From: an uncultured Acidobacteriota bacterium
GTDB lineage: Bacteria > Acidobacteriota > Terriglobia > Acidiferrales > UBA7541
Length of the DNA: 64,000 nt
Reading direction: 5' to 3'
Assembly: GCA_963819235.1 (NCBI GenBank)
Contig: CAWFVE010000003.1
Span: 947,568-1,011,567 of the forward strand
Shown here: one piece after another, positions 36,833-63,059 of the stretch
How the letters are laid out: every line of letters starts with the position of its first letter
How positions within the stretch are numbered: position 1 is the first letter of the stretch
Translations under genes and position numbers: made by a program
The notes under the pieces: model-generated
Database searches by the model: none
Told to the model about the DNA's origin: nothing
What the model saw: the letters and a program-made list of their open reading frames with translations, nothing else

Positions 36833-37837
36833 TTAGTGAGCATTTTCATCTGCGTTGAGCGGTTTGTTGATCCAGACCTCGGTTGGAACCGAGAGTGGTT
36901 TCGGCTCCTGGCGCACGAAGCGTTCGGGGTGGACGCGATAGGCGGCATCGAGAACGGCTTGACGCTGTTCGAGGATGTGCGCGGTTTGGTTGTAGTGGAC
37001 CATGGCCGGGGTGAGCAAGCCCAACCCGGAGTGGCGGTGTTCCTGGTTGTACCAGCGGAAAAATCCCTGCGAAAAAGCGCGGCTGTCCTGAATGCACCCG
37101 AAGCGGTCCGGAAACTCCGGCCGGTACTTCAGGGTGCGAAACTGGCTTTCCGAATACGGATTGTCATCGGAGACGTGCGGGCGGCTGTGGGTTTTCGTGA
37201 CACCCAAGTCGGCCAACAGGAAGGCTACCGGCTTGGAACTCATCGAGGTGCCGCGATCAGCATGTAGGGTGAGCTGGCCGGGCTGGATGTTTTGTTTCGC
37301 ACAACTCTCCCCGATCAGCCGCTTGGCCAGCTCCGCGCTTTCGCGCATCGCCACCATCCAGCCGGTGACGTAGCGGCTGAAGACATCGAGGATGACGTAG
37401 AGGTAGAAGTAGGTCCACTTGGCGGGCCCCAGCAGCTTGGTGATGTCCCAGCTCCAGAGTTGATTGGGAGCCGTCGCCAGTAGTTCCGGCTTCGTGTACG
37501 GCGGATGAGTCAACTGGTCACGTCGTTCGCGGGATTCGCCCTCTTGTTTCAGGAAGCGATGCATGGTGCGAATCGAGCAGTAATAGTGCCCTTCGTCGAG
37601 CAACGTCGCATACACAGCGGCTGGGGAGCGATCCTGGAATCGTTCTCCGTGCAGATGCGCCAGGACCGTTTCGCGTTCCGTCGGACTCAGGGCACGTGCT
37701 GGTCTCGGTCGCAAAGCGATCGCTGCGGGGAAAGAAGCTGCACGTCGATCCCGGTAGTAGGAAGCACGCGGCGCAAACAGCGCACGGCAAGCGGCGCGCG
37801 TGCCTACATCGGTCGCCAGTTCAGTGACCGCGGTCAT
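36833..37837 (-). CDS. IS3-family transposase OrfB (DDE integrase core)
   Basis: 334 aa with NQLWSWDITKL, LHADRGTSMSS and WYNQEHRHSGLGLLTP (the rve domain D, D, E regions). Confidence 0.92.
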   Translation of the reverse strand: MTAVTELATDVGTRAACRALFAPRASYYRDRRAASFPAAIALRPRPARALSPTERETVLAHLHGERFQDRSPAAVYATLLDEGHYYCSIRTMHRFLKQEGESRERRDQLTHPPYTKPELLATAPNQLWSWDITKLLGPAKWTYFYLYVILDVFSRYVTGWMVAMRESAELAKRLIGESCAKQNIQPGQLTLHADRGTSMSSKPVAFLLADLGVTKTHSRPHVSDDNPYSESQFRTLKYRPEFPDRFGCIQDSRAFSQGFFRWYNQEHRHSGLGLLTPAMVHYNQTAHILEQRQAVLDAAYRVHPERFVRQEPKPLSVPTEVWINKPLNADENAH

Positions 37838-38385
37838 CAGGACTCTTCCTCCAGGTCCTGTTCCGGAATCGGATGACCCAACAGCGCAGCCACTTTTTTT
37901 TGGACATCGATGATGATGTGCGCCTTACGCAGATCTTCGGTCAGACGTGCGTTCTGGCGGCGCAGCTTCTGGTTCTCCTCATCCATCGGATGGCGCTTGG
38001 ACTTCGGCCCGCGCCTCTGCGGAGTCAGCGCTTCGAGGATGCCGTTGGCCCGCTCGCGCCGCCAAGTGGCCAGCAGCGAAGAGTACAAACCTTCCCGGCG
38101 GAGGAGAGAGCCGATACCGCCTCGTGTGGCAGCGGCGGCCTCGGCTTCCTGCAGGATGCCCAGTTTATATTCCGCGGTGTAGGTACGCCGCTTGGGTTTC
38201 GCGACCACTTCGGGATCAGGCCGCGAGGCCGGCAGCGAATCGGCGCCCGCTTGGGCTGCCACTGCACTCCGCTTCGGCTCGCCAGGCTCGCCTCCGCTCC
38301 GTTCCGTGGCAGCCCAACTTGCAGAAGAAACAAAACCAAGAGAATTCCCGTTCATCTCTCCCTTTTTCTTTCTCGCCCTGCTCAT
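37837..38385 (-). CDS. IS3-family transposase OrfA (HTH plus leucine zipper)
   Basis: KRRTYTAEYKLGILQE... and LRRQNARLTEDLRKAHIIIDVQKKVAALLG. Its stop overlaps the orfB ATG by 1 nt (TGATG). Confidence 0.88.
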   Translation of the reverse strand: MSRARKKKGEMNGNSLGFVSSASWAATERSGGEPGEPKRSAVAAQAGADSLPASRPDPEVVAKPKRRTYTAEYKLGILQEAEAAAATRGGIGSLLRREGLYSSLLATWRRERANGILEALTPQRRGPKSKRHPMDEENQKLRRQNARLTEDLRKAHIIIDVQKKVAALLGHPIPEQDLEEES

Positions 38386-42366: not shown

Positions 42367-42809
42367 CTATGTTTGAAGCCTCCGCCGAGCTAAGAGCTCA
42401 CGACCCTTTTCAGCCACTTCCTGATGGCTCGCTCCGTAGATGGCTTGTTCTTCTCCGTAAGAATCGGCAGGAATTAACAGCCTAAACGGGCCGCCCCAGC
42501 CAGCCGTTCCGGATATGAGTTCATGGATATTCAGAAATTGCGTGTGACTTCCGATCTGAACTAGGTAACGGTATTCCCTAAAAAGCATTGAGACCCCGCA
42601 ATGTGAGTATTCCCTGTCCGTGCTAAGGACCCGTCTCTGAATCGAGCCCTTTCCGTTGAGTTATAGAACCCTTTAGACGGACGTGTTGTCAATCGTAACG
42701 AGTTTCGCAACGTCACGCTCTTTACAATGGCCCATAGAAGCGCATCGCCCCGGTACGAGAACTTATAATCTGCATTCCCTCCGCTTAGGTGAGTTACTTC
42801 TGTAAGCAT
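42367..42809 (-). CDS. Hypothetical protein, possibly one gene split by a frame break (42561-42809 plus 42367-42588)
   Basis: Two abutting reverse-strand ORFs with protein-like sequence (MLTEVTHLSGGNADYKFSYRGDALLWAIVK... and ...YLVQIGSHTQFLNIHELISGTAGWGGPFRLLIPADSYGEEQAIYGASHQEVAEKGRELL). No family recognised. Confidence 0.3.
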
Positions 42810-42841
42810 TGAGGGGTAATCTGACTTTTGCCGAAGGTGCA

Positions 42842-43864
42842 ATGTTCCTGACCTTCGCAGGACATGGGGGAATCGTGATTTCTGATCAGGTTGCGCTTGT
42901 TGTGGTAACTGGGGCAGGAGGATTCATCGGTGGGAATCTTGTGGCGAAGTTGCGCAGTCAGGGACACAAGAGGATCCGCGCCGTAGACGTCAAGCCCTTC
43001 GAAGAGTGGTACGGGCAGTTCAATGACGTGGAATCCATCTGCCTAGATCTGAATCTGAAGGAAAACTGCGAGATGGTGGCGGAGGGCGCGAGCGACGTTT
43101 ATAACCTTGCCGCGAATATGGGCGGAATGGGTTTCATCGAGCACAACAAAGCGCTCTGCATGCTGTCAGTGCTGATCAACACGCACATGTTGCAGGCGGC
43201 GGTAAAGCACGGGGTAAAGAGATATTTCTACTCATCGTCCGCATGTGTGTACAACAGAGACAAGCAGAAGACCTTCGAGGCGCCTCCGCTGAAGGAAGAG
43301 GAAGCATATCCGGCACTGGCTGAGGACGGATATGGCTGGGAAAAGTTGTTCTCCGAACGGATGTGTCGGCATTTCCGAGAAGATTTTGGATTGTACACGC
43401 GCGTCGCTCGCTTGCACAACGTCTACGGGCCCTGGGGGACGTGGTATGGCGGCCGTGAAAAGGCTCCGGCTGCGATCTGCAGAAAAGTGATTGAAGCGAA
43501 AGTTTCCGGCAAGGACGAAATCGAGATCTGGGGTTCTGGCCAGCAAACCCGCAGCTTCATGTTCATCGATGACTGCCTCAAAGGAATCGATTTGATTATG
43601 CAGTCCGAGGTCGTGGAGCCGGTCAACTTGGGGTCAAGCGAATCCGTCACGATCAATCAACTGGTTGACCTTGTGGAGGAAATTGGCGGGGTCAAGCTCA
43701 AGCGTAAATATGACCTCACTGCGCCGAAGGGTGTCAACGGCCGAAACAGTGACAATACTCTGATCAAGAGGCATCTCAATTGGGAGCCCAATACCTCTTT
43801 GAGGTCTGGTCTTGAAAAAACCTATCGTTGGATTTACGAGCAGTATTTGGCTCGCGAGGGGTGA
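42842..43864 (+). CDS. GDP-mannose 3,5-epimerase-like NAD-dependent epimerase
   Basis: Motifs VTGAGGFIGGNL, NLAANMGGMGFIEHN, YSSSACVY, YGWEKLFSE, LHNVYGPWGTWYGGREKAPAAICRK and GVNGRNSDNTLIKRHLNWEP. These match, as I recall them, the signature blocks of plant/bacterial GME. The start is uncertain (ATG 42842 or the GTG a few codons later). Confidence 0.8.
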   Translation: MFLTFAGHGGIVISDQVALVVVTGAGGFIGGNLVAKLRSQGHKRIRAVDVKPFEEWYGQFNDVESICLDLNLKENCEMVAEGASDVYNLAANMGGMGFIEHNKALCMLSVLINTHMLQAAVKHGVKRYFYSSSACVYNRDKQKTFEAPPLKEEEAYPALAEDGYGWEKLFSERMCRHFREDFGLYTRVARLHNVYGPWGTWYGGREKAPAAICRKVIEAKVSGKDEIEIWGSGQQTRSFMFIDDCLKGIDLIMQSEVVEPVNLGSSESVTINQLVDLVEEIGGVKLKRKYDLTAPKGVNGRNSDNTLIKRHLNWEPNTSLRSGLEKTYRWIYEQYLAREG

Positions 43865-44137
43865 GGCAGGTGGTCCCTCGTCTCCATGATGCAGAAACAC
43901 CGGCTGGGTGGGAACGTTCTGGGAGCCTCGCGTTTGCCCGGCGCTCACAATGGCCGACTGTCCGTTCTTGTCCGTAAATCGCGCCCAGAAGTTATAGGCT
44001 TCGGCATCAAAGTCCGGGTTTACCTGTTGCGCCGTCTGCGGATCGAGTAGCGCTGCGAAGGCTCCGGGTCGGGCGAGCAACCCGGGAAGCGTACCTACCG
44101 CGAATGCCTGTTTCAGGAAGTCTCTGCGTTGGGACAT
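43865..44137 (-). pseudogene. Tat-signal protein, N-terminal remnant
   Basis: MSQRRDFLKQAFAVGTLPGLLARPGAFA is a twin-arginine signal. After ~90 aa the ORF (43634-44137) runs antisense into the epimerase gene for 230 nt, so it is likely truncated. Confidence 0.4.
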
Positions 44138-47988: not shown

Positions 47989-48018
47989 TTGACACCGACA
48001 AATGTGCGGCGCTATGGT
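47989..48018 (+). promoter_or_regulatory. sigma70-like promoter TTGACA-N18-TATGGT upstream of cassette 1
   Basis: Read directly; it lies ~25 nt upstream of the ATG at 48042. Confidence 0.3.
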
Positions 48019-48041: not shown

Positions 48042-48434
48042 ATGAGACAGAGGGCCGGAATTGTTCCGCTTGTGGTGTTTGGCTTATTGGCGGTTTCCGT
48101 TCCGCTGTTTGCGCACCACGGGAACGCCTCGTTCGACACCAAACTAACCACGGTGACGGGAACGGTGACCGAGTTTATTTGGTCCAATCCTCATGTTTGG
48201 CTAAAAATGGACGCCAAGGACGCCAACGGCAATGTCCAGCATTGGATTGTCGAAGCTCAGAACACCGTGTCCATGAGAGCCATAGGCTGGAGGCCAGATA
48301 CATTCAAGCCTGGGGACGTCGTCAGCGTTGACGTCAACCAAGCCAAGAATGGCCGCCCCATCGGATCGACCGGTGGCTCCAGCCCCACCTCGGCCAAGCG
48401 CCGCATCATCATCAATGGCAAACAGTTCCAATGA
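48042..48434 (+). CDS. Small secreted protein, AHH family copy D1 (possibly DUF6152-like)
   Basis: MRQRAGIVPLVVFGLLAVSVPLFA|HHGNASFD...GTVTEFIWSNPHVWLKMDAKD. The signal peptide ends in FA followed by HH. One of four paralogues in the window. Confidence 0.8.
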   Translation: MRQRAGIVPLVVFGLLAVSVPLFAHHGNASFDTKLTTVTGTVTEFIWSNPHVWLKMDAKDANGNVQHWIVEAQNTVSMRAIGWRPDTFKPGDVVSVDVNQAKNGRPIGSTGGSSPTSAKRRIIINGKQFQ

Positions 48435-48526: not shown

Positions 48527-49438
48527 ATGTTTAAGCGCCTGCTCGGTTCGGCCGTTGCTCTGATCTTTTTGGCGTTTTCGCCTGCCGTACGCGCTCAAAC
48601 CGCGGCGGGCAACGCTTCCCAAGACAAATGGAATGGCGTCTCGCCTCTGCGATCGACGTACGAGGGGAAAAAGTCGGGCCCGGCTCCCGTCCGCGACATT
48701 TCGGGGATCTGGGACGCAGCTTACGAAGATGGAGGACGCCAAACGAGTGGTGCGAAAGAGCACCCGTCGGTCTACCCAGGAAGAAATTTTGCCGAAGGAG
48801 GGGGGCACCCCGACGAAACCGGTATTGTTCATCCTTTGCCTTATACGCCCGCGGGGCTCGCGGCGCTGAAGGCCAATCGGCCTTCGAACGGTGTCAGGCA
48901 AGTCCCCTCCGCATCTTCAAATGATCCGATTAATAAGTGTGATCCGCTCGGATTCCCCTACATGGAACTTTTCGAGCTAAGGACCTTGGATGTCGTCCAA
49001 GCGAAAAACCAGGTGCTTATCATCAGCCCGTTTTATGGCAATTACCGTATCATCTGGACCGACGGCCGCGAGCTTCCCAAGAATGAAGAGGCTCGCTGGA
49101 ACGGCTACTCTGTAGGCAAATGGCTGAACGATTCCGACTTTTTCATCGAGACCAACGGAATGATGCCCGGGAGCTGGATCGACCACGCCGGCCGTCCGCA
49201 TAGCGATGCCCTGCGCGTCGAGGAGACCTGGCACCGCGTGGACCGCGACAATATGCAACTCACGCTGAAGATTATCGACCCCAAGTACTACAGCGAACCG
49301 TGGCTGGCTCTCGACAAGTTTCCTATGCACTTGCAACCAGCCGATTTCGACATCCAGGAGCTGCGCTGCGCCCCCTCGGAGATGGACAAGTACAACGACA
49401 ACGTGGGCGACGTAGTCCTTGACCCCAAGACGAAATGA
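48527..49438 (+). CDS. Secreted ~300-aa partner protein, copy P1
   Basis: Signal peptide, then DISGIW, KCDPLGFP, IIWTDGRELP, GYSVGKWLNDSDFFIET, GRPHSDALRVEE and IIDPKYYSEPW. These motifs are shared with four paralogues. Confidence 0.8.
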   Translation: MFKRLLGSAVALIFLAFSPAVRAQTAAGNASQDKWNGVSPLRSTYEGKKSGPAPVRDISGIWDAAYEDGGRQTSGAKEHPSVYPGRNFAEGGGHPDETGIVHPLPYTPAGLAALKANRPSNGVRQVPSASSNDPINKCDPLGFPYMELFELRTLDVVQAKNQVLIISPFYGNYRIIWTDGRELPKNEEARWNGYSVGKWLNDSDFFIETNGMMPGSWIDHAGRPHSDALRVEETWHRVDRDNMQLTLKIIDPKYYSEPWLALDKFPMHLQPADFDIQELRCAPSEMDKYNDNVGDVVLDPKTK

Positions 49439-49793: not shown

Positions 49794-51386
49794 CTACCGG
49801 TTGATGTACCAGTAGCCAACCTTGTTATTCACCGAACTCGCATACCACATGCGCCCCTGCGAATCCATGAAGAATTCGCGCATGGAAATCTCGGAGTGCG
49901 GATACGGATATTCGATCACCTCGCCCGTTTTGGGATCGAAGCGGCCGATCGTGTCCTGCTCGTGTGAGGCATACCAGATCATCTTGTTGCGATCCATGCC
50001 TATGGCGTAAGGGCTAGCGGCAGGTCCGGGCAAATCGAATTCTTTAAAGCTTTCGGTTTGGGGATCGAATCGGCCTAACTTGTTTCCGCCTCGCTCGCTG
50101 AACCACACAATATTATTCTCGTCCACCAGCAAGCGTTGCGGCTTGCCCTTGGTGGGCGGGTAGAACTTCGAAAGTTTCCCATCCTTGGTGACTCTGGCGA
50201 TAGGTCCAGGAAAAACAAACGATGTGAACCACTCGTCTCCATTGTGTCCGACGATGTTGCCATAGGTGTTGCCGACGTCGAAATGAGAGAACTTATTGGC
50301 GATCGGGTCAAACATCGTGATGGCGGGACCGCCGCTGGTCCACACGCGTCCCCGCTCATCGACTCGAATTGTGTGCGTGCCGGTTGGCGTGCCGTCCAGC
50401 AGTGGCGTGTTCTGATATTCCACGATCTCCTTGGTAAACGGGTTCAAATGCCCGAACTTCCCCAGTGCTGCTTCGGTGAACCAGACGGTGCCGTCGGGAG
50501 CCGGAATTGCCGAGTGAATACCCGCCGTTTTTGTGAACGGCAACGGGAATCGCGCCAACTCGGCTGTTTTTGGGTTCAGCCGCACGACTTCGTTGCCGCG
50601 CCCGTAATAAGGAATCCAGAACATACCGTCTTTGTCTTCGACGGCGCTCCACGGACCCTGTCCCTTGATTGGCGGGAAATCGTATTCCACGTAGGCGATA
50701 TTCATCGCCTCCGGGCTGAACGTGCGTACCAGCTTCTTATATTCCGGTAGGGCGGCGGGAGAAGCGGGCTTCTTCGAGTCAGGACCGAACATGGCTGCCA
50801 GGAATTCCGCAAAGTCCTGGGCTTTTTCGTCGGTCATCCGGCCGCCGCCCTCGCCGCCCATGATCGTATTGCTCATGTACTGGATCAGAGTCTTCCAGCC
50901 TTGTGCATCATGGCTTTGCGATGCCACTCGATGCTGGAGCGAATGGCAGGAAGTCATGCAAGTCGTGAAGTAGGGTTCCTGATATCTCTTCGAAAGGTCG
51001 TGCTTGGCAGTTTTGGGCAGCAGTTGCGTTATCTGGTAGGTGGTCAGGTCGGTCCAGCGCACAGAGGCCGCCTGCAGCGCGAAATCGCAAGCCAATTTTT
51101 GGTCGGCAGTCAACTGGACGTTGTCGTGGGGATCGCTCCTGTAGCCCACGGCCGAGATTTGTACGGAATAGGTGGCAGCCGGCAGGTTATTGATGTGGTA
51201 GCGGCCCTGCGCGTCCGACAGCACCGTGACCGTCATTTTGTTTTGCGAATTCTCGGCGACCACGAAGATGCCCATGATGGGCTTGCCGTCGGGTCCTGTG
51301 ACGTTACCTGCAATCGAAGCCGCGAAGGCCGTTGACGCCAGCGATGCCGTCAAGGCGAGAGAAACGAGTTTACCGATGAACCTCAT
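49794..51386 (-). CDS. CarboxypepD_reg domain plus Vgb (streptogramin lyase)-like beta-propeller protein
   Basis: Signal peptide. IAGNVTGPDGKPIMGIFVV...GRYHINNLPAATYSV is a carboxypeptidase-regulatory-like fold. A mid-region CMTSCH motif follows, then repeated ...W(F/Y)(T/A)(E/S)...G(R/H)(F/L)(D/N)P.T... blades. The ATG at 51386 is preceded by GGGAGGAG. Confidence 0.75.
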   Translation of the reverse strand: MRFIGKLVSLALTASLASTAFAASIAGNVTGPDGKPIMGIFVVAENSQNKMTVTVLSDAQGRYHINNLPAATYSVQISAVGYRSDPHDNVQLTADQKLACDFALQAASVRWTDLTTYQITQLLPKTAKHDLSKRYQEPYFTTCMTSCHSLQHRVASQSHDAQGWKTLIQYMSNTIMGGEGGGRMTDEKAQDFAEFLAAMFGPDSKKPASPAALPEYKKLVRTFSPEAMNIAYVEYDFPPIKGQGPWSAVEDKDGMFWIPYYGRGNEVVRLNPKTAELARFPLPFTKTAGIHSAIPAPDGTVWFTEAALGKFGHLNPFTKEIVEYQNTPLLDGTPTGTHTIRVDERGRVWTSGGPAITMFDPIANKFSHFDVGNTYGNIVGHNGDEWFTSFVFPGPIARVTKDGKLSKFYPPTKGKPQRLLVDENNIVWFSERGGNKLGRFDPQTESFKEFDLPGPAASPYAIGMDRNKMIWYASHEQDTIGRFDPKTGEVIEYPYPHSEISMREFFMDSQGRMWYASSVNNKVGYWYINR

Positions 51387-51855
51387 GGCTCCTCCCAATC
51401 CGGGATGTCCAAGTGATCTCTGGAACGAACGGCAACATACAACCGACCACCTCAGAATGCAATGTTCGGGCCACCTTGGATGCGGCGTTGGCGGCTAAAA
51501 CGAAAAAGGTTGCTGAGAAGCAGATCCAATCCTTTTTCATGGACACCTACGCCGTATACCAATCGGTAAAAATCGAGCGCTGTGCGTCAGCGACGGACAT
51601 CTTCCCTGAGCACACCTGCTGATGCAGCTAACAGCCTATCGCTATAAAGTAATCGTGCCGATCGCACTACTCTGGCGATGTTCGCAGATGGGAGACAGGA
51701 GAGGCCGAGCCAGGAAACTTGTGCCGGCTTAGCCCATTCGGTGCTACACTATCGCGACGATGTGAATTACTGCTTCCCCTGATAAACAGCTGTCGTTGTG
51801 CTACGGGTAACCTTTCTGTCGCACACTGGGACTCCATCTACTTGAGGAGGCTACG

Positions 51856-52266
51856 ATGATGAGGCACAGGGTTCTACTGGGCTTGCCGCTCGTCTTGGGG
51901 TTCTTGGCTGCACCCGCCTTCGCGCACCACACCTTTTCCGTTGAATACGACAAGGACAAGTGCAGCGACATGGTTGGTACCCTCACGAAAGTTGACTGGG
52001 AAAATCCGCACGTTTACTTCTATATCGACCTAAAGGACGCCGATAATCAGGTTACCTCCTGGAGCTTTGAGGCAGTGTCGGTAGCCTATCTGAAGCGGAG
52101 CGGGATACAGAGGCAAGATTTCATCGATAATATGGGCAAGACCGTCACTGCCCGTGCCTGCCTGGGGAAAAACGCCAGCATAAAAAGAGCCGCTGCTGAA
52201 TACATCACGATGCCCGATGGCCGAAAACTGAAAGTCGGCAGCGATTACGAGCATGGGCAGAACTGA
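51856..52266 (+). CDS. Small secreted protein, AHH family copy D2
   Basis: MMRHRVLLGLPLVLGFLAAPAFA|HHTFSVEYD...GTLTKVDWENPHVYFYIDLKD. GAGGAGG lies upstream. Confidence 0.8.
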   Translation: MMRHRVLLGLPLVLGFLAAPAFAHHTFSVEYDKDKCSDMVGTLTKVDWENPHVYFYIDLKDADNQVTSWSFEAVSVAYLKRSGIQRQDFIDNMGKTVTARACLGKNASIKRAAAEYITMPDGRKLKVGSDYEHGQN

Positions 52267-53077
52267 ACGGCTGCGAACAACGGTTTGTCTTGCTCGCCTT
52301 GTTTTAGTCCTCGCAACCGTGGCGGCCTGTGTCTGCATGGCTGCAGCCCAGGACAACGGGGGTGCGTTGCCGAAGGGTGGACCGGCTCCGCGTGCCGCCG
52401 ACGGTCATCCCGACCTTTCCGGCGTGTGGTTTCCGGGCTACACGGGCACCTACTCTACGGATCATCCTGCAGCGCAACGCCCATTTGATCCTAAGGCGAC
52501 GCCCGAAGAAAGGCCCGCCTTCCAACCGTGGGCGGCAGCCAAGATCAAATCCATGACTGCTGTCGATCTCGAACTCGCGAGGCCCTCAGTGAATTGTTTG
52601 CCGCGCGGCACGCCCGGCATGCTGCTCCTGAATCCGTACCCCACACAATTGGTGCAAACGCGCGACGAACTGATCCAACTGAACGAATTGAACACCAATT
52701 TTCGCGTGATCCACACTGATGGCAGGCCGCACACCAAAAATCCCGATCCGACTTTCGTTGGAGATGCAACCGCGCATTGGGAGGGAGAGACGTTGGTGAT
52801 CGATGTGATTGCCATCGACGAACGCACCTGGAACAACTTCGTCGGCTGGTTCCATAGCGATCAGGAGCACGTGATCGAGCGCCTTACGCGTACAAGCAAA
52901 AACTATCTCACCTATCAAGTTACGATCGAGGATCCCAAAGTGCTCACGAAGCCGTGGACCTCGGCGCCACGGATGTGGTCGCTTGGCCACGAAGATCTGG
53001 AGGAGTACTACTGCACGGATAACCAGGAAGTGCAACAATACGGGTCCATCAAAGACAAAGACGCGAGCAGCAAGTAA
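52253..53077 (+). CDS. Secreted partner protein, copy P2
   Basis: Overlaps D2 by 14 nt. Motifs PDLSGVW, NCLPRGTP, VIHTDGRPHT, ATAHWEGETLVIDV, FHSDQEHVIER and IEDPKVLTKPW. Confidence 0.8.
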   Translation: MGRTERLRTTVCLARLVLVLATVAACVCMAAAQDNGGALPKGGPAPRAADGHPDLSGVWFPGYTGTYSTDHPAAQRPFDPKATPEERPAFQPWAAAKIKSMTAVDLELARPSVNCLPRGTPGMLLLNPYPTQLVQTRDELIQLNELNTNFRVIHTDGRPHTKNPDPTFVGDATAHWEGETLVIDVIAIDERTWNNFVGWFHSDQEHVIERLTRTSKNYLTYQVTIEDPKVLTKPWTSAPRMWSLGHEDLEEYYCTDNQEVQQYGSIKDKDASSK

Positions 53078-53197: not shown

Positions 53198-54085
53198 CTA
53201 TTTCTTTTGTGAGTCTGGTAGCACGGGCTTGCTCACCTGCTTGTCATATTCGGCTTGTTCTGACGGTGAGCAGAGCATCTCGCGAATGTCGAAATCGGCT
53301 GATTGCAGCCGCATAGGGAATTTATCGAGGGCATTCCAGGGTTTCGTATACATTTGAGGATCAATGATCGTCACCGTGAGTTCAAAAATGTCATGATTCA
53401 CTCGGTGGAACCGCTCTTCCACTCGCAAGTCGCCGCTATGAGGACGACCGGCATTATCCAGCCAGGTTCTTTCGTCGAGGCCAATCGTCTCGACGACCAA
53501 CGTGGTATCGTCCACCCACTTGCCGACCGAGTAGCCGAACCATCGAGGCTCCATAATATCCTTTTGAGGCGGGAAGTCTCGGCCATCGGTCCAGATGTTG
53601 CGAAAAGTCCGATCATTTTGATACAAGATCAGCACCTGCTTTTCCGTCTGCGTAATCTGTATCGACCTAAAGCCGAAGAGTTCTAACCGCGGAAACCCGA
53701 TTGGATCGCAGACGTCAAACGGATCATTATTGGTCCCAATGGCGACTTCGGTGGTTCCAAATCCAGGCCTATGAGACTTCCATGTTTTTTCCCCAAGAGG
53801 GGTAAAAGGCAACTGATGCTCGGGTTTGTTATCTGACGGGTATTGCATAGCGCCATATTGCTGGACTCCGGCCCGCCACCCCGCGGCTGGTTCCCAAATC
53901 CCAGAAAGGTCGTGGCGAGGCGCCGCGAGTGACTTCTGGTCTTTGGGCGGAACAGGGACGTCCCTGTACCAACCGTCGACATGTTCCGCAGTTCCCGGCT
54001 CCAGCGTCGCAGCATTTTGAGCGCGGGCCGGAAGTGAAAACATCGACGCAGCAAGTACGATTGGGACCGCTAACCGATTTAACAT
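53198..54085 (-). CDS. Secreted partner protein, copy P3
   Basis: The ATG at 54085 (MLNRLAVPIVLAASMFSLPARAQ) is preceded by GGAGGAAGAGGAA. Motifs HDLSGIW, VCDPIGFP, NIWTDGRDFP, GYSVGKWVDDTTLVVET, GRPHSGDLRVEE and IIDPQMYTKPW. Confidence 0.8.
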   Translation of the reverse strand: MLNRLAVPIVLAASMFSLPARAQNAATLEPGTAEHVDGWYRDVPVPPKDQKSLAAPRHDLSGIWEPAAGWRAGVQQYGAMQYPSDNKPEHQLPFTPLGEKTWKSHRPGFGTTEVAIGTNNDPFDVCDPIGFPRLELFGFRSIQITQTEKQVLILYQNDRTFRNIWTDGRDFPPQKDIMEPRWFGYSVGKWVDDTTLVVETIGLDERTWLDNAGRPHSGDLRVEERFHRVNHDIFELTVTIIDPQMYTKPWNALDKFPMRLQSADFDIREMLCSPSEQAEYDKQVSKPVLPDSQKK

Positions 54086-54105
54086 GGGAGATTCCTCTTC
54101 CTCCA

Positions 54106-54504
54106 CTACCGGTCAGGACCGCGATCTTCGGTCTGCTGGCGTACCCACTTGCCATTGGCGAGTTGTGCCCGCTGGACACGCCCGACAGCCGCGCCATTGT
54201 CAGGTGTCAAAGCGACCACCGTCACTTCATCCCCAGGCTTGAAAGTCGCGCGGGTTATGCCGGAATTGATGAGACTTGACGGAGCGTTCCACTCAACGAC
54301 CCAATTGACAACCTTCTCGTCGTCGCCTTTTACATCCATCTTCAGAAAGGCGTGCGGATTAAGCCAAACCCACTCTGTCACGGTTCCCTTCAGAGTCATC
54401 TGTTTGGCATGGCCATAGGATGCGTTTCCGTGGTGCGCGAAGAGCGGAAGGGAAGCAGCGAAAAGGCCGATGATCACGAGGGAACTCCTGAGCTTATTTT
54501 TCAT
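54106..54504 (-). CDS. Small secreted protein, AHH family copy D3
   Basis: MKNKLRSSLVIIGLFAASLPLFA|HHGNASYG...GTVTEWVWLNPHAFLKMDVKG. Confidence 0.8.
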   Translation of the reverse strand: MKNKLRSSLVIIGLFAASLPLFAHHGNASYGHAKQMTLKGTVTEWVWLNPHAFLKMDVKGDDEKVVNWVVEWNAPSSLINSGITRATFKPGDEVTVVALTPDNGAAVGRVQRAQLANGKWVRQQTEDRGPDR

Positions 54505-54767: not shown

Positions 54768-55889
54768 CTACGCGGCTGGTCTCATCCGCGGCAACAACCT
54801 AAGAGCGTTCTCGCTCTTAATGGCCTGAAGCTCCTGAGAGTCAAATACCCCTGAAGCCGTTAAACCATTGGTATTTTCGAGAGAAGAACGATATGGGTAA
54901 TCTGTCCCGAATACGATCTGCGACATGGGCACGACGTGCCGCAGGGCGGTCATTGGCACCGGGTGAAATGCTTGCGCCGTATCGTAATAGAATTTGCCGA
55001 CCTCGACTTGGAAATCCGATCGCCAAGTACCGGGGTTAGTTCCTTTGGGAGGGAGGCGATCAGCGAAGCGCCCTATCAAGAATGGCATGGTGCCGCCGGC
55101 GTGAGAGAAAATCATACGAACGTCCGGATAGCGTTTGGACGCGCCGCTATAGACCATTCGGACGATCGCACGTGTCGTGTCCGTCCCATACTCGATTGCG
55201 GCGGACGCCACGCCAGAGAGGAGGTTCTTGCAACAATCGTTGAAAGTTGGGTGAACGAAGACGACTGCCTTACGTCGATTGAGTTCCTCGAAGAGCGGCG
55301 CGAAAAACGGATCTCCCAACCATTTGTTGCCGTAGCTTGAAAACAGCTGGATACCGTCCAACTTCAGGTTATCGAGGGCGTACTCGGCCTCCTGCAGGCT
55401 GCCGTCGATATCGGGCAACGTCAGCGTAGCAAAACTGCCGAACCTGCCCGGATAATCCGAAGCAAGCTTCGCAGCATATTCATTACAGTCGCGGGCCAGA
55501 TGCCGTCCCTGGTTTTCGTCTCCAAACGAGACGCCCGGCGTGACAATGGAATTCATGGAGGTAGTGACGCCCGCCTGATCCATATCCTCTATGGTCTTCT
55601 GGGCCGACCAACCGACCAGGGCTGCGGGAAAGTTCCTGTGATCTTTCAAGACCTGCATGTAAGCTGTCGGCGCAAAATGGTGGTGGACATCAATCCAACC
55701 CTTCGTTGGAGGCGACGTCAACCGTTCTTGTGGTGCTGATACGCTCCAAGGAAAAATCGCACTCCCAGCCAAGGCGGCGACTCGAGTGAGGAATTGCCGT
55801 CGAGGCATGGAGGAAGAACTTGAGTCCGCCGCGGCTCCGCTTCGCAATGTGCGGGAATCGTGGTTGTGTTTGTGATCCAGGAGACTCAT
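54768..55889 (-). CDS. Tat-signal amidohydrolase (amidohydrolase_2/ACMSD-like)
   Basis: RRQFLTRVAALAGSA is a twin-arginine signal. WIDVHHHFAP is a metal-binding motif, followed by a TIM-barrel-like remainder. The ORF track starts at TTG 55901. Confidence 0.8.
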   Translation of the reverse strand: MSLLDHKHNHDSRTLRSGAAADSSSSSMPRRQFLTRVAALAGSAIFPWSVSAPQERLTSPPTKGWIDVHHHFAPTAYMQVLKDHRNFPAALVGWSAQKTIEDMDQAGVTTSMNSIVTPGVSFGDENQGRHLARDCNEYAAKLASDYPGRFGSFATLTLPDIDGSLQEAEYALDNLKLDGIQLFSSYGNKWLGDPFFAPLFEELNRRKAVVFVHPTFNDCCKNLLSGVASAAIEYGTDTTRAIVRMVYSGASKRYPDVRMIFSHAGGTMPFLIGRFADRLPPKGTNPGTWRSDFQVEVGKFYYDTAQAFHPVPMTALRHVVPMSQIVFGTDYPYRSSLENTNGLTASGVFDSQELQAIKSENALRLLPRMRPAA

Positions 55890-55966
55890 GGCCTCTCGCA
55901 ATAGAGTGCCGCCTCTCCGCTAAAGACCAACTGTGAATCGGACACCCGTTGCCGAGCTAGGTTCTC

Positions 55967-58900
55967 TCAGAATAGAAGTTTCAAAGAGAATTGAATTTGC
56001 CGACTGGAGGTCGACGTTGAAATAATCCCTGTGAAGGCCGGGTTTTCCGCAAGGTCTTTCACACTTCCCGAAAGAAATCCGCCATTTTGCGCCGGTCCTA
56101 AATTCGGGTGGTTCAAGATATTAAAGAGTTCCGCACGGAACTGCACTTTGCCAGCCTCGCCCAGCCAGCGCAGTGAAGTGTCCTTGTTTATGGAGAAGTC
56201 CCAGGTGGACAAGCCCGGCCCTCTCAGAGTGTTCCTCGGCACATCGCCGATGGTCCCGACAGCGGGCAGCGTAAACATATTGGGATTAAACCACTGCCCG
56301 ACCGTGCCAGTGATCACGGTGTTGGGGTTAAAAACCACGGGATTGTAAGGAATGCAGCCCGTCGAGTTTGCGGGACAGGAAGTCACACCCGCAGCTTGCG
56401 CCGCGGCCGTTACCGTCGCGAGATTGGAGCTTGTGACGTAATCGGGTCGTTCAAGCCCTCCGTTTGTGCCTGCCAGGCCGGCCTGTTCGCGGTCGGCGCC
56501 CAGCAGTGGCGTGAATGGCTGGCCCGTCTGCACGGTGACGATGCTTCCCGTCCACCATCCGCTCAGAACCTTGCCCAGGAATCCCCGCACCGGGGCATTC
56601 GGCAAATTGTACAAAACGTTGAAATGCCAGTTCTGTTTTATATCAAAGTTGCCTGGGCCATAATCGAGCATGGGATTAAACGGATCTTCGATCAAACCCG
56701 TTTGGCTGCCGCTGGTATCGGAATTCGAGAGGCCTTCCGTATCGTCGAGCAACTTACTGAATGTGTAGGCGCTTTGGAATTGCAACCCGTGGCCCAGCCT
56801 CTTCGTCAGATTCACTTCCAAGGCGTTGTAATTGGATATGCCGATCGTGTTGAACAATCCGAAGTTCGTATAAAAGGGATTGAGCCGGGGCGCTGCGGTG
56901 AAGCCCGGTGGACAAGCAGGGCCTTGGGTTGCTTGGCAGCCCCAGACCGGGCTAGCATTCGGAACCACTGTTGTGAACCCCGCGCATCCTTGGGGCACGA
57001 AGGTATTAGAATTGGGACAAAACGGATTCGATTCGTTTGCAGGTTGCCATAGGTTCAGTCCCCGCGAGCCGGCATAGGCTACGCTCAAAGCCATTCCGAA
57101 CGGAAGCTGCCGCTCGACGGTCAAATTGAAATCCTGCATGTGCGGCGATGTGAAGTTCGTAACTACGGCCGTGGGCGATGATCCTTGGAGAGCGCCGAAG
57201 ACGGTGCCGGGTGGAACAGTCAGGGGAAGCGGAAGTACACCAGGAGTCTTTGTTGAGTTCGTGACTGTGAAACTGGAACTGTAAGGCGGCATCCCGCCCA
57301 GCATCGCAAACAGCGCGCCAAGATCACTGATATCGTAGAGGATGGCGAAGCCGCCTCTTACGGACGTTTTGCCATTGCCGAATACGTCCCAAGCAAATCC
57401 GATTCGAGGGCTCACATCGCCATGCGTCGGGTCGTTAACGATATGGCCGATTGAGACGGTGTCGCTGTACGGCGGATCTGCGAAAAACGATTGGTGCCCT
57501 TGCGCTTCATTCGGCTGTGTATTGAATTCGTATCGCAAGCCAAGATTCAGAGTGAATCGCGGCAGCACGCGATATTCGTCCTCCGCGTAAAATCCCACCG
57601 TATTGTAGAGCATATACTTCAGATTGTTATTTCCCGGAGAGGGAACGGAATAGCTCCGGTATTGGCCCAGCAAAAATGACTGGAGCGAGCCGAAGGTAAC
57701 CGAGCCTTTTGGTCCCTCGTTATTGTTGGCGTACTGCTGATAGTGATTGATTAAAGTTCCAAATTTCAGCGCGTGCTTGCCTTTGGTCCAGAAAACGTCG
57801 TCGCCGAAACTGAAGATGTTCTGCCTGTCGTTCAAGGCGCTGCTGGCTGTATCACTGAAATTCGCGATGGGAGTGATGTTCATGGGGCAGATCGGCTCGC
57901 CAGTCACGCACGAGTACTGCTGGCCGGATACTGAGCTGGTGAACGGGTTCGAAGAAGATGGCGTCGCGTCTAGGACATTCGACCGGCTGAATGAGAAACG
58001 TGCCGAGTTCAACAGGATCGGAGTAAAAATGTGGTTCTCAGAGATGGTCACGTACTGCTGCCGCTCCACGAGACCGAAATCGAACTGCGGAAAAATTTTC
58101 GGATAGCTCTCATTGGCATCGTCAATCGTGTAACGGACGAAAGTCGAATCCGCACTGGAGAAATTGTGGTCGATCCTTGCTTGCCCGTAGTCTTCCCGGG
58201 TTCTCGAAGTGGCCAGATAAGTAAACTCGTCGCCGGGCTCAATGTTCGGCAACGGCCAAAGCGCGAGGATCGGTTGTATGACGGGCGCTACGTTTTCCGT
58301 TGCGCCGCCTTTCAGTGAGGGATCACATGCGCTCGTCACCGTCTCCACCGGACCACCTGGAGTATTGATGATCGGCGTATGGCACGCTGCTGGGATCGTA
58401 GGCGTTATGCCAACATTTGGCGGGTTTGCATAAACTTGCCGAAATCCTTCATATGTAGTGAAGAAAAACGTCTTGTCCTTCTTGATCGGTCCGCCTACGC
58501 TGCCGCCGAACTGATTTCTGCGGAAGGGAGCGATGCGCAACCCTCCGCCCGGAACGGTGGGCGGAAGCGAGAATAGCTCGTCGAAGAGATTGCGCGCGTC
58601 GAACGCGTCATTCCGCACATACTCGTAGAGGTCGCCATGAAGCGAATTCGTCCCGCTCTTGGTGACAATGGTCATCTGGCTGCCCATGTTGAGCCCGTAC
58701 TCGGCGCTGAACGTATTGGTCATGACCTTGTACTCTTGAATGCCGTCTAGTCCGAGCGACTCTCCTGTGATCGATGCGGCACTGGCGCCCTGAATGTTTC
58801 CCATGATCGCGCCATCGAGCGTGTACATGTTCGAGCGGAGCGGGGCTCCATTGGCGCTATAAAAAACTCCAAAGAGGCCATTGGTGCCGAAATTATTGTT

Positions 58901-59410
58901 TGCGAACGGGGTTACGCCTGTTTGCATGAGCGTAAGGTCCACGAAATTCCGCCCATTTAGAGGAAGATCGGAAATCTCGGTCTCGTTCACGAGTTGGCCT
59001 AAAGAACTTGACGTCGTGTCGATCGCCGGCGCTTCGCCGGTAACGGTGACCTGCTGCGCTGTTGTACCGACCTGAAGCGCGAAATTCACGACGGCTTCCT
59101 GAGCGACATCGAGCGTGAGTCCCGTTTGGGTCACGGTCTCGAACCCGGTCGACTCGGCCTTTACGTCGTAACGGCCGACCGGCAGGGCCGGAAAACGATA
59201 CGCCCCGTCATCGCCCGTCATAGCCATCCGCGACACACCCGACTCCACATTCCGCACGCTTACGCTCGCTTTTGGAACTGAGGCGCCGCTCGCGTCCTTC
59301 ACGACCCCCGAGATCGTCCCCGTCGGCACGACCTGCGCCGCCAGAGAAACTCCCACAAGAAACACAACCAGTACAGTCCGGCCCACCCTGGAACACACGT
59401 CATTCAACAT
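55967..59410 (-). CDS. TonB-dependent receptor with an N-terminal carboxypeptidase-regulatory-like domain
   Basis: 1147 aa. Signal peptide, GTISGVVKDASGASVPKASVSVRNVESG...YRFPALPVGRYDV, a plug-like region, then a long beta-barrel ending ...SRQIQFSLKLLF (C-terminal Phe). Confidence 0.9.
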   Translation of the reverse strand: MLNDVCSRVGRTVLVVFLVGVSLAAQVVPTGTISGVVKDASGASVPKASVSVRNVESGVSRMAMTGDDGAYRFPALPVGRYDVKAESTGFETVTQTGLTLDVAQEAVVNFALQVGTTAQQVTVTGEAPAIDTTSSSLGQLVNETEISDLPLNGRNFVDLTLMQTGVTPFANNNFGTNGLFGVFYSANGAPLRSNMYTLDGAIMGNIQGASAASITGESLGLDGIQEYKVMTNTFSAEYGLNMGSQMTIVTKSGTNSLHGDLYEYVRNDAFDARNLFDELFSLPPTVPGGGLRIAPFRRNQFGGSVGGPIKKDKTFFFTTYEGFRQVYANPPNVGITPTIPAACHTPIINTPGGPVETVTSACDPSLKGGATENVAPVIQPILALWPLPNIEPGDEFTYLATSRTREDYGQARIDHNFSSADSTFVRYTIDDANESYPKIFPQFDFGLVERQQYVTISENHIFTPILLNSARFSFSRSNVLDATPSSSNPFTSSVSGQQYSCVTGEPICPMNITPIANFSDTASSALNDRQNIFSFGDDVFWTKGKHALKFGTLINHYQQYANNNEGPKGSVTFGSLQSFLLGQYRSYSVPSPGNNNLKYMLYNTVGFYAEDEYRVLPRFTLNLGLRYEFNTQPNEAQGHQSFFADPPYSDTVSIGHIVNDPTHGDVSPRIGFAWDVFGNGKTSVRGGFAILYDISDLGALFAMLGGMPPYSSSFTVTNSTKTPGVLPLPLTVPPGTVFGALQGSSPTAVVTNFTSPHMQDFNLTVERQLPFGMALSVAYAGSRGLNLWQPANESNPFCPNSNTFVPQGCAGFTTVVPNASPVWGCQATQGPACPPGFTAAPRLNPFYTNFGLFNTIGISNYNALEVNLTKRLGHGLQFQSAYTFSKLLDDTEGLSNSDTSGSQTGLIEDPFNPMLDYGPGNFDIKQNWHFNVLYNLPNAPVRGFLGKVLSGWWTGSIVTVQTGQPFTPLLGADREQAGLAGTNGGLERPDYVTSSNLATVTAAAQAAGVTSCPANSTGCIPYNPVVFNPNTVITGTVGQWFNPNMFTLPAVGTIGDVPRNTLRGPGLSTWDFSINKDTSLRWLGEAGKVQFRAELFNILNHPNLGPAQNGGFLSGSVKDLAENPAFTGIISTSTSSRQIQFSLKLLF

Positions 59411-59899: not shown

Positions 59900-59929
59900 T
59901 TGACATTAATTCAGTTGCTCTTGTAGAGT
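59900..59929 (+). promoter_or_regulatory. sigma70-like promoter TTGACA-N18-TAGAGT upstream of cassette 4
   Basis: Read directly. AGGAGG lies 5 nt before the ATG at 59970. Confidence 0.35.
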
Positions 59930-59969: not shown

Positions 59970-60416
59970 ATGAAACGGCACCTTCCTTTGACTGGCTTAG
60001 GCTTATTGGTTTTGAGTTCTGTCTTATTAGTCCTTCCGGCTTTTGCACACCATGGATTTCAGTATGAGTACGACGGGAACAAATACATCACCGTCTCAGG
60101 TGTGTTGACGAAAATCGAATGGGAAAACCCTCACATCTATTTCAATGCCGACGTGAAGGATGCAGATGGGAAGGTGACCTCGTGGCGTTTTGAAGGCTCA
60201 TCCGTCACGCTAGTCAAAAGGACGGGAGTCACTCGGTCGGATTTCGCGGACAATATCGGTAAAACGATCAGTGTAAGTGGCTGTCCAGCCTTGGGCGGCC
60301 AGCCTAGAGTCGCAGCCGAAACGGTCAAGCTGCCTGACGGTCGAGAAATCACCGTTGCCAGGAAGAGATATTTCGGCGATGGCAGCAAGCCAGCGGACGA
60401 CAAAGGCGAAAACTAG
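59970..60416 (+). CDS. Small secreted protein, AHH family copy D4
   Basis: MKRHLPLTGLGLLVLSSVLLVLPAFA|HHGFQYEYD...GVLTKIEWENPHIYFNADVKD. Confidence 0.8.
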   Translation: MKRHLPLTGLGLLVLSSVLLVLPAFAHHGFQYEYDGNKYITVSGVLTKIEWENPHIYFNADVKDADGKVTSWRFEGSSVTLVKRTGVTRSDFADNIGKTISVSGCPALGGQPRVAAETVKLPDGREITVARKRYFGDGSKPADDKGEN

Positions 60417-60615: not shown

Positions 60616-61596
60616 ATGAAACTTCGCTCTAGTGCGTACCTGGCGATCACGACAGGCGCGCTGGCGTTGGTATCCATCTTCTATATACACGCGAGTGCCC
60701 AGGATAAGAAGGGAAGCGGCGCCACGCCGGGCGGGGTCCAGAAGGTGCCCTCCAAGCCACTGCCTGAAGGCGGGCCTGCGCCCCGCTTGGCGGACGGCCA
60801 TCCCGACCTAACCGGACATTGGTACCCGGGGTTCTTGGGAAAAGAGGATGCCACGCTCGTAAGTTCCGCCGCAACTCAGGGTGAACCGTTGCTTAAGCCC
60901 TTCGATCCTAAGGTGACGCCCGAGGAAAAGCCTTCCTTTCAGCCTTGGGCAATCGAAAAGATGAAAGAGACGGCAACCGGCGGCGGAGCCGATGCGGATG
61001 ACACAGGCAGGGGAGGGACAAACCTTAGGAATTTTCAGAATTTACCTAAGGCTCAAAAGATAGCCATTCTCAAGAACGAGATACTTCACTTATCGATGGA
61101 TTGCATGCCTCATGGTGTTCCAGCCATGTTCCTAGGTGCTGGCCACGGCATGCAGTTGGTGCAATCGACTGGATTGTTGGTGCAATTGACCGAGTTAAAT
61201 CATGACTTTCGACTGATACCTACGGATGGACGGGCGCATACCAAGGATCCAGATCCTGCATTCAACGGCGAAGGTGTGGCGCATTGGGACGAAGATACGC
61301 TCGTGATCGACACCATCGCAATCGATGAGAGGGCCGGTGTTACCCAGCGATGGACATTACATAGTGATCAGGAACACGTTATCGAACGCATCAGCCGCCC
61401 CTCATTGAATTACCTGAATTACCAAGTCACGGTCGAGGACCCCAAAGTACTGACAAAGCCGTGGCATTCCGTCGTTCATCATTACTCCCTCAGCCGCGAG
61501 TCTCTGTTGGAGTGGTATTGCGGCGTTGCCAGTCATAATGACGAGGACATCGCAGCTTACCAGGAGGAGATACGAAAGCTGGAAGAAGAGCAGTAG
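60616..61596 (+). CDS. Secreted partner protein, copy P4
   Basis: Motifs PDLTGHW, DCMPHGVP, LIPTDGRAHT, GVAHWDEDTLVIDT, LHSDQEHVIER and VEDPKVLTKPW. Confidence 0.8.
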   Translation: MKLRSSAYLAITTGALALVSIFYIHASAQDKKGSGATPGGVQKVPSKPLPEGGPAPRLADGHPDLTGHWYPGFLGKEDATLVSSAATQGEPLLKPFDPKVTPEEKPSFQPWAIEKMKETATGGGADADDTGRGGTNLRNFQNLPKAQKIAILKNEILHLSMDCMPHGVPAMFLGAGHGMQLVQSTGLLVQLTELNHDFRLIPTDGRAHTKDPDPAFNGEGVAHWDEDTLVIDTIAIDERAGVTQRWTLHSDQEHVIERISRPSLNYLNYQVTVEDPKVLTKPWHSVVHHYSLSRESLLEWYCGVASHNDEDIAAYQEEIRKLEEEQ

Positions 61597-62132: not shown

Positions 62133-63035
62133 ATGAAGTGCAAGCCAATAGGGCGCCTCCCGAGTAAACTCTGTCTCAAAGTTGTGGTATTGGGAGCTCT
62201 GCTGTGGACTCCCGCATGGGCTCAGGTCGACCTTGAGGGTTCGTGGCGTCCGCTTCCGCGCGCGCAAGACGGCAGCGGGATGATCGGCGACATCGCCGGC
62301 GTGCCTGTCACTGACGGCGACCGCTTGAGAGTCGAAACCTGGTCTCCGGAAGACTTCGATATCACAGAGTGGAGCTGCCGCCCGCACCCGTGGGACTATT
62401 CACTTGAAAGTGAGCGGTCTCCGATACGATTCTGGGCCGACGCCGATCCCGCCACGCAGAAGATCATCGCTTATCATGGCCACATTAATATGGAAGAGCA
62501 GGAAGTGACCATCTGGATGGATGGCCGCCCGCGTCCTTCCGAAAATACTCTGCATACCTGGAGCGGATTTTCGACCGGCGAGTGGGATGGCGATGTCCTG
62601 GTCGTGACAACGACGCACCTCAAAGAATCCTACGAGCGTCGCAACGGACTCATGCGCAGTGATCAGGCAGTGGTGCGTACGCGCTGGCGACGCATGGGCA
62701 ATTACCTGCAGGCGACTTCGATTCTTTATGATCCGGTCTATATGACCGAACCCTACATCCGAAGCAACTTGATTTGGGTCAATGACCCCACGATGCAGAT
62801 GCCGCCTTATCCGTGCGAGGAGGCGACCGATACGGCGGTTCCTAGAGGCGTGGTGCCGCACTTTCTTCCAGGCAAGAGTCCCTTGCCCGCGTTCAACAAG
62901 GATCTGACGGATAAGTTCGGAACGCCTTATGAGCCTAGACTTGGCGGGGCTGAAACGATGTATCCCGAGTACATCAAGAAGATGAAAGCCATGCCGCGAC
63001 CTCCGAAGCTTGCCGATAGCAGTTCGGCGCGCTGA
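62133..63035 (+). CDS. Secreted partner protein, divergent copy P5
   Basis: Signal peptide ...TPAWAQ, then VDLEGSW, IWMDGRPRP, GFSTGEWDGDVLVVTT, MRSDQAVVRTR and LYDPVYMTEPY. The C.P.G.P motif is degenerate (SCRPHP). Confidence 0.7.
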   Translation: MKCKPIGRLPSKLCLKVVVLGALLWTPAWAQVDLEGSWRPLPRAQDGSGMIGDIAGVPVTDGDRLRVETWSPEDFDITEWSCRPHPWDYSLESERSPIRFWADADPATQKIIAYHGHINMEEQEVTIWMDGRPRPSENTLHTWSGFSTGEWDGDVLVVTTTHLKESYERRNGLMRSDQAVVRTRWRRMGNYLQATSILYDPVYMTEPYIRSNLIWVNDPTMQMPPYPCEEATDTAVPRGVVPHFLPGKSPLPAFNKDLTDKFGTPYEPRLGGAETMYPEYIKKMKAMPRPPKLADSSSAR

Positions 63036-63059
63036 TGAGGCGAGCGCACGTACGACTGT

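Follow-up and report, generated by a model that had tools for sequence, protein, structure and literature searches.

A conserved N-terminal histidine in secreted proteins has recently been a productive route to metalloproteins, among them the LPMOs, CopC/YcnI, DUF4198, DUF6702 and the 'anglerases', all of which are beta-sandwiches. In the histidine brace, as set out in PMC10952591, the amino group and the pi-nitrogen of His1 together with the tau-nitrogen of a second histidine are arranged in a T-shape around Cu. Under the term 'signal-strapping', DUF families with a conserved histidine at position +1 after the signal peptide have been shown to bind Ni, Co or Cu, the families confirmed in this way being DUF4198, DUF6702, Ang-1 and Ang-2 (PMC12537917). 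In DUF4198 (IsDUF4198, PDB 9GCB) the residues are His1 and His18, the metal is Ni and the genes lie near TonB-dependent receptors; in DUF6702 the residues are His1, His28 and His32 (PMC12537917). IsDUF4198, PaDUF6702 and RbAng-1a, representing three of the four tested families, bound Ni(II), the first two with a preference for Ni over Cu, and none of the four families showed substantial oxidase or peroxidase activity (PMC12537917). DUF6152, the family described in the following, is mentioned neither in that paper nor in its supplements.

We analysed a window of 64,000 nt that is part of a 1.45-Mb MAG contig and consists, outside of the region described here, of ordinary chromosome. A six-frame search of the whole window located the motif W-x-N-P-H in exactly four ORFs, hereafter D1 to D4 (Table 1). 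According to a rule-based signal-peptide analysis their leaders have an n-region charge of +2 or +3, a hydrophobic core of 12-18 residues, a Pro at -4 and an Ala at -1. The -3/-1 rule is satisfied directly before a His-His pair in D1 to D4, and this is the sole candidate site common to all four proteins. A cleavage GNA/S in D1 and D4 was rejected, as this site is missing from D2, D3 and the wider family. The start codons of D1, D2 and D3 agree with public gene calls, in which the exact 130-aa D1 product is also present. The first-pass annotation of this DNA had described signal peptides ending in (L/A)FA that are followed directly by HH, as well as an invariant WxNPH about 25-30 residues further on. 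The translations and the leader analysis confirm this for D1 to D4, with the W-x-N-P-H lying 25 residues after HH. Pairwise identity among the four copies is only 27-49%, and H25, H26, W47, N49, P50 and H51 are among the 23 invariant columns of their alignment; the HH/WxNPH pattern is therefore not a product of chance.

Furthermore we noticed a decayed fifth D fragment, of which HMM positions 50-78, i.e. 29 domain residues, are left. The fragment has kept the NPH (...GTVTYFRFMNPH...) and is without HH. It is convergent with E5, a divergent member of the E family described below, and overlaps slightly with the 3' end of this gene.

Table 1. Features of the region in the window, in order of position. 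N-termini are taken from the ORF translations; the slash marks the predicted cleavage site.
Feature	Coordinates	Strand	Evidence and remarks
D1, DUF6152, 130 aa, PLFA/HHGNAS	48042..48434	+	Pfam PF19649 E 1.3e-24, 86.6 bits
D1 signal peptide	48042-48113	+	predicted, rule-based
D1 mature N-terminal His-His	48114-48119	+	sequence
D1 W-S-N-P-H	48180-48194	+	sequence
E1, secreted, 303 aa, partner of D1	48527..49438	+	no Pfam/NCBIfam model; predicted calycin-like 8-strand barrel and C-terminal helix
D2, DUF6152, 136 aa, PAFA/HHTFSV ... WENPH	51856..52266	+	Pfam E 1.6e-18, 67.1 bits
E2, partner of D2, start overlaps D2 end by 14 nt	52253..53077	+	E-family HMM 227.8; alignment
E4, partner of D4, immediately downstream	53198..54106	-	E-family HMM 370.7; 48% identical to E1
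D4, DUF6152, 132 aa, PLFA/HHGNAS ... WLNPH	54106..54504	-	Pfam E 2.6e-26, 92.0 bits
Amidohydrolase_2 (Amidohydro_2) enzyme, twin-arginine-type N-terminus RRQFL (RRQFLTRVAALAG)	54768..55901	-	Pfam E 2.8e-31
TonB-dependent outer-membrane receptor, CarboxypepD_reg and OMP_b-brl_4	55967..59410	-	Pfam E 4.5e-184
D3, DUF6152, 148 aa, PAFA/HHGFQY ... WENPH	59970..60416	+	Pfam E 1.3e-19, 70.5 bits
E3, partner of D3	60616..61596	+	E-family HMM 255.1
E5, divergent E-family gene, no intact D adjoining	62133..63035	+	E-family HMM 163.2; alignment
Decayed fifth D fragment (GTVTYFRFMNPHCQIYFDIK)	62977..63234	-	D-family HMM E 2.3e-8, partial match

D1 to D4 are clear members of the Pfam family DUF6152 (PF19649): they score 67-92 bits at a gathering threshold of 27 bits, and the same domain was found in all 120 close homologues among the matches listed. 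No NCBIfam model matched any of the four proteins. When all 1.84 billion representatives were scanned with HMMER, the family amounted to 7708 clusters (50% identity) at E<=1e-3, of which 1464 reached E<=1e-10. The source records annotate the proteins as 'hypothetical' or 'DUF6152 family protein'. The nearest relatives of the window proteins come from MAGs of Acidobacteriota or 'Candidatus Acidoferrales'. A literature search for DUF6152, PF19649 and IPR046150 returned no publication, and the same was the case when histidine brace or N-terminal histidine was combined with OB-fold. Searches of the PDB sequences with a single D sequence and with the D profile gave nothing significant and detected no solved structure. 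A match to a type II dehydroquinase with an S-N-P-H motif (E 0.9) was dismissed as coincidence.

Conservation was assessed in an alignment of 154 sequences, composed of 150 representatives with at most 50% mutual identity and D1 to D4. Both the His-His pair (H25 0.98, H26 0.99) and the NPH (N49 0.98, P50 1.00, H51 0.99) are near-universal, followed by W68 (0.97), A24 and E71 (0.94 each), D32 (0.87) and D57 (0.86). The N-terminal histidine is stricter in DUF6152 than in DUF4198 or DUF6702, for which a conservation of 79% and 65%, respectively, was reported (PMC12537917). Across DUF6152 sequences the distance between HH and NPH is fixed at 24-26 residues. When counting diverse representatives, and among these solely the 142 in which the N-terminal region is present, we found the NPH in 138 and HH in 137; Ala occupies -1 in 129, and 136 show a hydrophobic stretch directly ahead of the site. 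All 35 sequences of a gammaproteobacterial subfamily that has diverged from the rest have preserved both HH and NPH, with Gly or Ala at -1. Cleavage before HH, judged by the -3/-1 rule, and conservation of HH and NPH among homologues, two of the three points on which the first-pass annotation had wanted its reading to be checked, are thus both borne out.

Two proteins with two D domains each (P0129 and P0173) show A/HH...NPH in the first domain; in the internal second domain HH is missing, and the NPH is either changed to DPH or absent as well. Since the internal repeats drop HH, the pair seems to matter at a free N-terminus only. In addition, the residue after HH covaries with mature position 43. 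HHG occurs together with His43 in 83 sequences; of the approximately 28 sequences with HHS none has His43 and most have Glu43. In the HHS subfamily Glu47 is replaced by Gln and Asp33 by Glu. This covariation could be compatible with one common site, or alternatively it could reflect mere subfamily descent. Mutual information with APC (~270 sequences, Neff 149) was dominated by C-terminal gap patterns, and the only usable pair, residue 27 with residue 67, may be phylogenetic. A degenerate DNA pattern (A-H-H, 20 codons, W-x-N-P-H) applied to genome contigs hit 87 loci, 6 of which are true D family by HMM; the others are chance matches, of which about 70 were expected by estimate.

The structure of mature D1 was predicted with AlphaFold2 from a 132-sequence alignment (pLDDT 90.9, pTM 0.82). 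The first ten residues are the least confident part of the model, with a mean pLDDT of 66. DSSP assigns strands b1 (7-23), b2 (28-35) and b3 (41-47), a helix (51-56), b4 (69-77) and a split b5, and the model thus represents D as an OB-fold, a five-stranded barrel in the order b1-b2-b3-helix-b4-b5. Foldseek searches against the PDB gave OB-fold proteins only among the best 50 matches listed, headed by Rim1/SSB, the anticodon-binding domain of LysRS, PriB and POT1 (TM 0.45-0.6, best E 4.8e-4); no LPMO, CopC, cupredoxin, brace protein or other beta-sandwich was among these 50. With OB-fold proteins alone among these 50 matches, D does not belong to any of the known histidine-brace families. Membership in the LPMOs (AA9-AA17) or in CopC/PmoF/YcnI was rejected, D being predicted as an OB-fold rather than a beta-sandwich and His1 not being placed at the start of strand 1. 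The analogy to LPMOs and CopC/PmoF that had been drawn for the D proteins therefore fails at the level of families.

In the D1 model N25-P26-H27 (mature numbering) forms the turn between b1 and b2, loop L12, and the His-His pair sits at lower confidence on a six-residue tail ahead of b1. Judged by strand register, the hydrophobic residues 28/30/32/34 and 44/46 would face the barrel interior, and His27, Asp33, His43 and Glu47 would point outward on the b2-b3 sheet, which is the usual ligand face of OB-folds. At its beginning b1 is paired with the final part of b4, which lets the HH tail come out next to loop L45. The binding cleft of OB-fold proteins, e.g. the DNA-binding domains of RPA, is flanked by L12 and L45. 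With the tail beside L45 the predicted topology of D would thus allow the His-His pair to reach His27. Since apo models of experimentally proven His1 sites are of low confidence at the N-terminus as well (PMC12537917), the low confidence of the D tail is not decisive either way.

HH and NPH might also be structural or serve export and processing, as signal-peptidase context or as a folding nucleus, and play no part in ligand binding, with D acting as a scaffold or chaperone for its partner E. The Asn-Pro in the tight b1-b2 turn of the model is a plausible structural motif, and D covaries with E and is in some cases fused to it (see below). However, signal peptidase I needs no His at +1 or +2, the tail lies outside of the folded core in the model, and a conservation of ~98% of two exposed tail histidines across subfamilies less than 40% identical is hard to explain on this basis. 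We consider such a role very unlikely.

We tentatively prefer another reading, to which we give slightly less than an even chance: a metal site that involves the N-terminal His and lies along the OB cleft of D, with D acting as a unit with E. Signal peptidase I would cut after the conserved Ala, so that mature D, a secreted, periplasmic, single-domain protein, starts with His1-His2 on a short tail of fixed length (HH-x-x-A-x-[YF]-D). The free amine and the imidazoles of His-His together with side chains of the OB cleft would then coordinate a divalent transition metal, be it Ni, Co, Cu or Zn. Candidate cleft ligands, in mature numbering, are His27 of the NPH loop L12, Asp8, Asp/Glu33, His/Glu43 and Glu47. 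Such a site may be either of the brace type (amine and His1) or, by analogy with GHK and NikM, of the X-His type (amine, amide, His2 and a distal His). D would form a unit with the lipocalin-like E, encoded adjacent or fused, and the probable role of D-E is to capture, retain or pass on a metal or metal-bound ligand within the periplasm, in many cases at a step downstream of a TonB-dependent receptor.

Each of the four intact D genes in the window is followed on the same strand by an E gene encoding a secreted protein of about 300 aa. No model or match for E was obtained from Pfam, NCBIfam or the PDB sequences; the family comprises 2054 word-indexed homologues. The AlphaFold2 model of E (pLDDT 81.6, pTM 0.82) begins with a long N-terminal region that is disordered in part, followed by an eight-strand barrel and a C-terminal helix. 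Foldseek returned weak calycin matches alone, namely CRABP/FABP and Tp0751, with a best E of 5.4e-3 and a TM to the target of ~0.46. Conserved in the family are D-x-S-G-x-W, the Cys pair C138/C281, T-D-G-R, H-S and D-P. The true start of E4 is probably the ATG seven codons inside the ORF given in Table 1. E5 is without the first conserved Cys, and Arg replaces the His of its 'HS' motif.

D-E pairs are also found in divergent loci (L088, L092, L091, L050 and L023), and there are two pairs in L095 and four in L093, the latter a locus of a 'Candidatus Acidoferrales' MAG in which all four lie within 8 kb. Pairwise D-D and E-E identities are correlated with r = 0.89 over 13 pairs, a value reached by none of 2000 Mantel permutations; D and E diversify together. 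In a gammaproteobacterial subfamily the two are fused as a single polypeptide. P0472, P0473 and P0482 match both the D and the E HMM, and in most other gammaproteobacterial members the D domain runs on into the N-terminal motif of E (...LEGRWIAD..YPGGFDGFF...). At the DNA level fusions were seen in L096, L097 (340 aa), L098 and L099 (336 and 349 aa), and in the fusions HH remains at the predicted mature N-terminus. Like L093, L099 shows a strong amplification of paralogues: on this gammaproteobacterial contig the two fusions are accompanied by a third gene with a D domain (P0491, 249 aa), by two D genes that stand on their own, and by ORFs of 318 and 273 aa that resemble E in length and have no Pfam match.

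On the minus strand of the window the TonB-dependent receptor, the Amidohydro_2 enzyme, D4 and E4 follow each other in succession, and D3-E3 is divergent from the receptor. The sequence of the Amidohydro_2 protein suggests a periplasmic metal-dependent hydrolase or decarboxylase. A TonB-dependent receptor adjoins D-E in four of the eight long contexts (the window, L095, L097 and L098). The other neighbours vary and include amidohydrolases, MBL-fold proteins, a PQQ dehydrogenase, cytochromes c and a flavodoxin-like protein. Genes of copper or nickel homeostasis, such as copper ATPases or NikR, were not seen in the D-E contexts read.

Between D1-E1 and D2-E2, at 49794..51398 (-), lies a gene for a 534-aa secreted protein with CarboxypepD_reg, one haem-c motif of the CxxCH type (CMTSCH) and a Vgb-lyase-like beta-propeller. 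In a promoter and terminator scan promoter-like sites were not enriched over shuffles; the best two sigma-70-like matches of the 16-kb region (10/12 each) are located at 47989..48018 and 59900..59929 (+), just upstream of D1 and D3, which is weak evidence. Elsewhere in the window we found an IS3-like insertion sequence at 36833..38385 (-), consisting of an HTH_Tnp_1 transposase ORF and an rve integrase-core ORF. At 26651..32714 (+) the gene of a large helicase of the Lhr type (DEAD, Helicase_C, WH_Lhr, DEAD_assoc) precedes that of an ATP-dependent DNA ligase, and the two look like a DNA-repair gene pair. A 167-aa ORF at 43634..44137 (-), which has no match in Pfam, starts with a Tat-like leader (SQRRDFLKQAFAVG) and overlaps with an epimerase ORF (42809..43864) at the 3' end of the latter.

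The neighbourhood and the fold of E bear on a further explanation, namely that D-E serves in the periplasm as the carrier of, or the enzyme for, a ligand that is organic and not a metal, for example an aromatic or other hydrophobic compound, imported via TonB-dependent receptors. The E barrel would hold the ligand, and HH, NPH and the acidic residues of D would contact it or dock D on E, with no metal involved. The best structural matches of E are indeed carriers of small ligands (CRABP/FABP and Tp0751), weak as they are (E ~5e-3, TM ~0.46), the neighbours are catabolic (Amidohydro_2, Lactamase_B, PQQ dehydrogenase, DLH, glyoxalase) rather than related to metal homeostasis, the many D-E paralogue pairs per genome suggest varied substrates, and OB-folds classically bind oligomers or small ligands on the face in question. 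However, the fold assignment of E is weak, and an organic ligand leaves unexplained why His is mature residue 1 in ~97% of the sequences and why HH is lost in internal repeats; moreover, three His grouped with Asp and Glu are far more characteristic of metal sites. We regard this explanation as the main rival, of somewhat lower probability than the metal site.

D could also carry a true copper histidine brace and would then be the subunit responsible for catalysis or redox chemistry in a new oxidative enzyme, for which E binds the substrate. The N-terminal His is conserved, as are further His at 2, 27 and 43, the expansion of D paralogues resembles that of LPMO families, and redox proteins are sometimes found nearby (the CxxCH propeller protein in the window, CytoC_RC in L095). 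On the other hand, the predicted fold of D is unrelated to that of known brace proteins, the model places His1 on a flexible tail and not at a strand start, and no copper-handling genes lie nearby. The Ni(II) binding by three of the four tested N-terminal-His families and the lack of substantial oxidase or peroxidase activity in all four (PMC12537917) point in the same direction. We therefore consider a copper enzyme of this kind improbable.

For the N-terminal-His metal site lining the OB cleft speak the near-universal HH, NPH and Ala at -1 of DUF6152 and the confinement of HH to the free N-terminus in the two-domain proteins. We also count as support the confident OB-fold model with the predicted position of His27, Asp33, His43 and Glu47 on its ligand face, the covariation of the residue after HH with position 43, the D-E linkage, the TonB-dependent receptors that adjoin some of the loci, and the precedent of DUF4198, DUF6702, Ang-1 and Ang-2 (PMC12537917). 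Against it speak the tail as the lowest-confidence region of the model, the varied neighbours without metal-homeostasis genes, and the adjacency to TonB-dependent receptors in only about half of the long contexts. Since there are no copper genes nearby and characterised N-terminal-His DUFs prefer Ni, Co or Cu variously (PMC12537917), copper is not specifically indicated. The periplasmic metal or redox module suggested in the first-pass annotation is partly supported, in that the cleavage rule and conservation back the candidate N-terminal-His site. An N-terminal-His metal site is a good hypothesis for D; the designation as a histidine-brace copper protein goes beyond the evidence.

DUF6152 is already catalogued in Pfam yet uncharacterised. 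New among N-terminal-His candidates is its combination of the His-His/NPH signature, the predicted OB scaffold and the obligate, sometimes fused, lipocalin-like partner. From these features the family emerges as a credible candidate for a new metal-binding family working with a barrel-shaped partner, on a scaffold other than the beta-sandwich of the N-terminal-His metalloproteins named at the outset. The most far-reaching version would make DUF6152 the first OB-fold scaffold with a true N-terminal histidine-brace-type copper (or nickel) centre, and D-E a new two-component periplasmic metalloenzyme or metal shuttle with the metal centre in D and the substrate pocket in E. Such a system would have many paralogues both in Acidobacteriota from soil and in marine Gammaproteobacteria, and would be linked to TonB-dependent uptake; we think this quite unlikely. 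D and the un-modelled E (no Pfam or NCBIfam model) are a ready two-protein system to test, and with its inferred metal binding the pair deserves experimental follow-up. Should metal binding be confirmed, N-terminal-His metallobiology would gain both a fold and an architecture that are new to it, and there would be a first handle on a D-E pair that is highly amplified in Acidobacteriota beside TonB-dependent receptors.

How do D and E compare with characterised systems? Features predicted for E that recall the lipocalin/calycin carriers are a barrel of eight antiparallel strands with a helix behind it, a G-x-W on strand one and a disulfide. Unlike these carriers, E has an insertion of ~90 residues and no sequence-family match, and the structural matches are weak (E ~5e-3). 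CusF is a periplasmic five-stranded OB-fold metallochaperone for Cu(I)/Ag(I) that holds the metal on the b2-b3 face with a Trp nearby; its ligands are His-Met-Met and it has no N-terminal His. D is likewise a small periplasmic protein with a predicted five-stranded OB-fold. A metallochaperone of the CusF type was rejected, as Pfam gives DUF6152 only and D is without any conserved Met beyond the start codon (the next highest Met frequency is 0.34 at position 78, 154 sequences).

Square-planar X-His sites are known from the GHK peptide and from NikM/CbiM, membrane proteins in which Met1-His2 is complemented by a distal His; a free amine, His2 and a distal His would make a 4N site. On comparison of the sequences D likewise offers a His2 (H26 0.99) and a distal His (H51 0.99). 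With LPMOs, CopC/PmoF and YcnI (PMC10952591), D shares a mature N-terminal His that arises from removal of the signal peptide, further conserved His/Asp residues and an extracytoplasmic location. His as residue 1 of the mature protein, by which the histidine brace is defined, is what the rule-based cleavage test yields for D. Unlike these proteins, D is predicted not to be a beta-sandwich, and its His1 lies six residues before strand 1 in the model, whereas theirs is at the start of strand 1. The absence of copper genes near D-E likewise sets it apart from the copper histidine-brace proteins.

The resemblance to DUF4198 and DUF6702 includes small size, secretion, membership in a DUF family, His1 after cleavage, further conserved His about 17-30 residues on, and a His1 region of low confidence in the apo model. 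Some D-E genes adjoin TonB-dependent receptors, as is the case for DUF4198. In contrast to these two beta-sandwich or Ig-like families, D combines a predicted OB-fold with a His-His pair that is invariant, and has E as its obligate partner.
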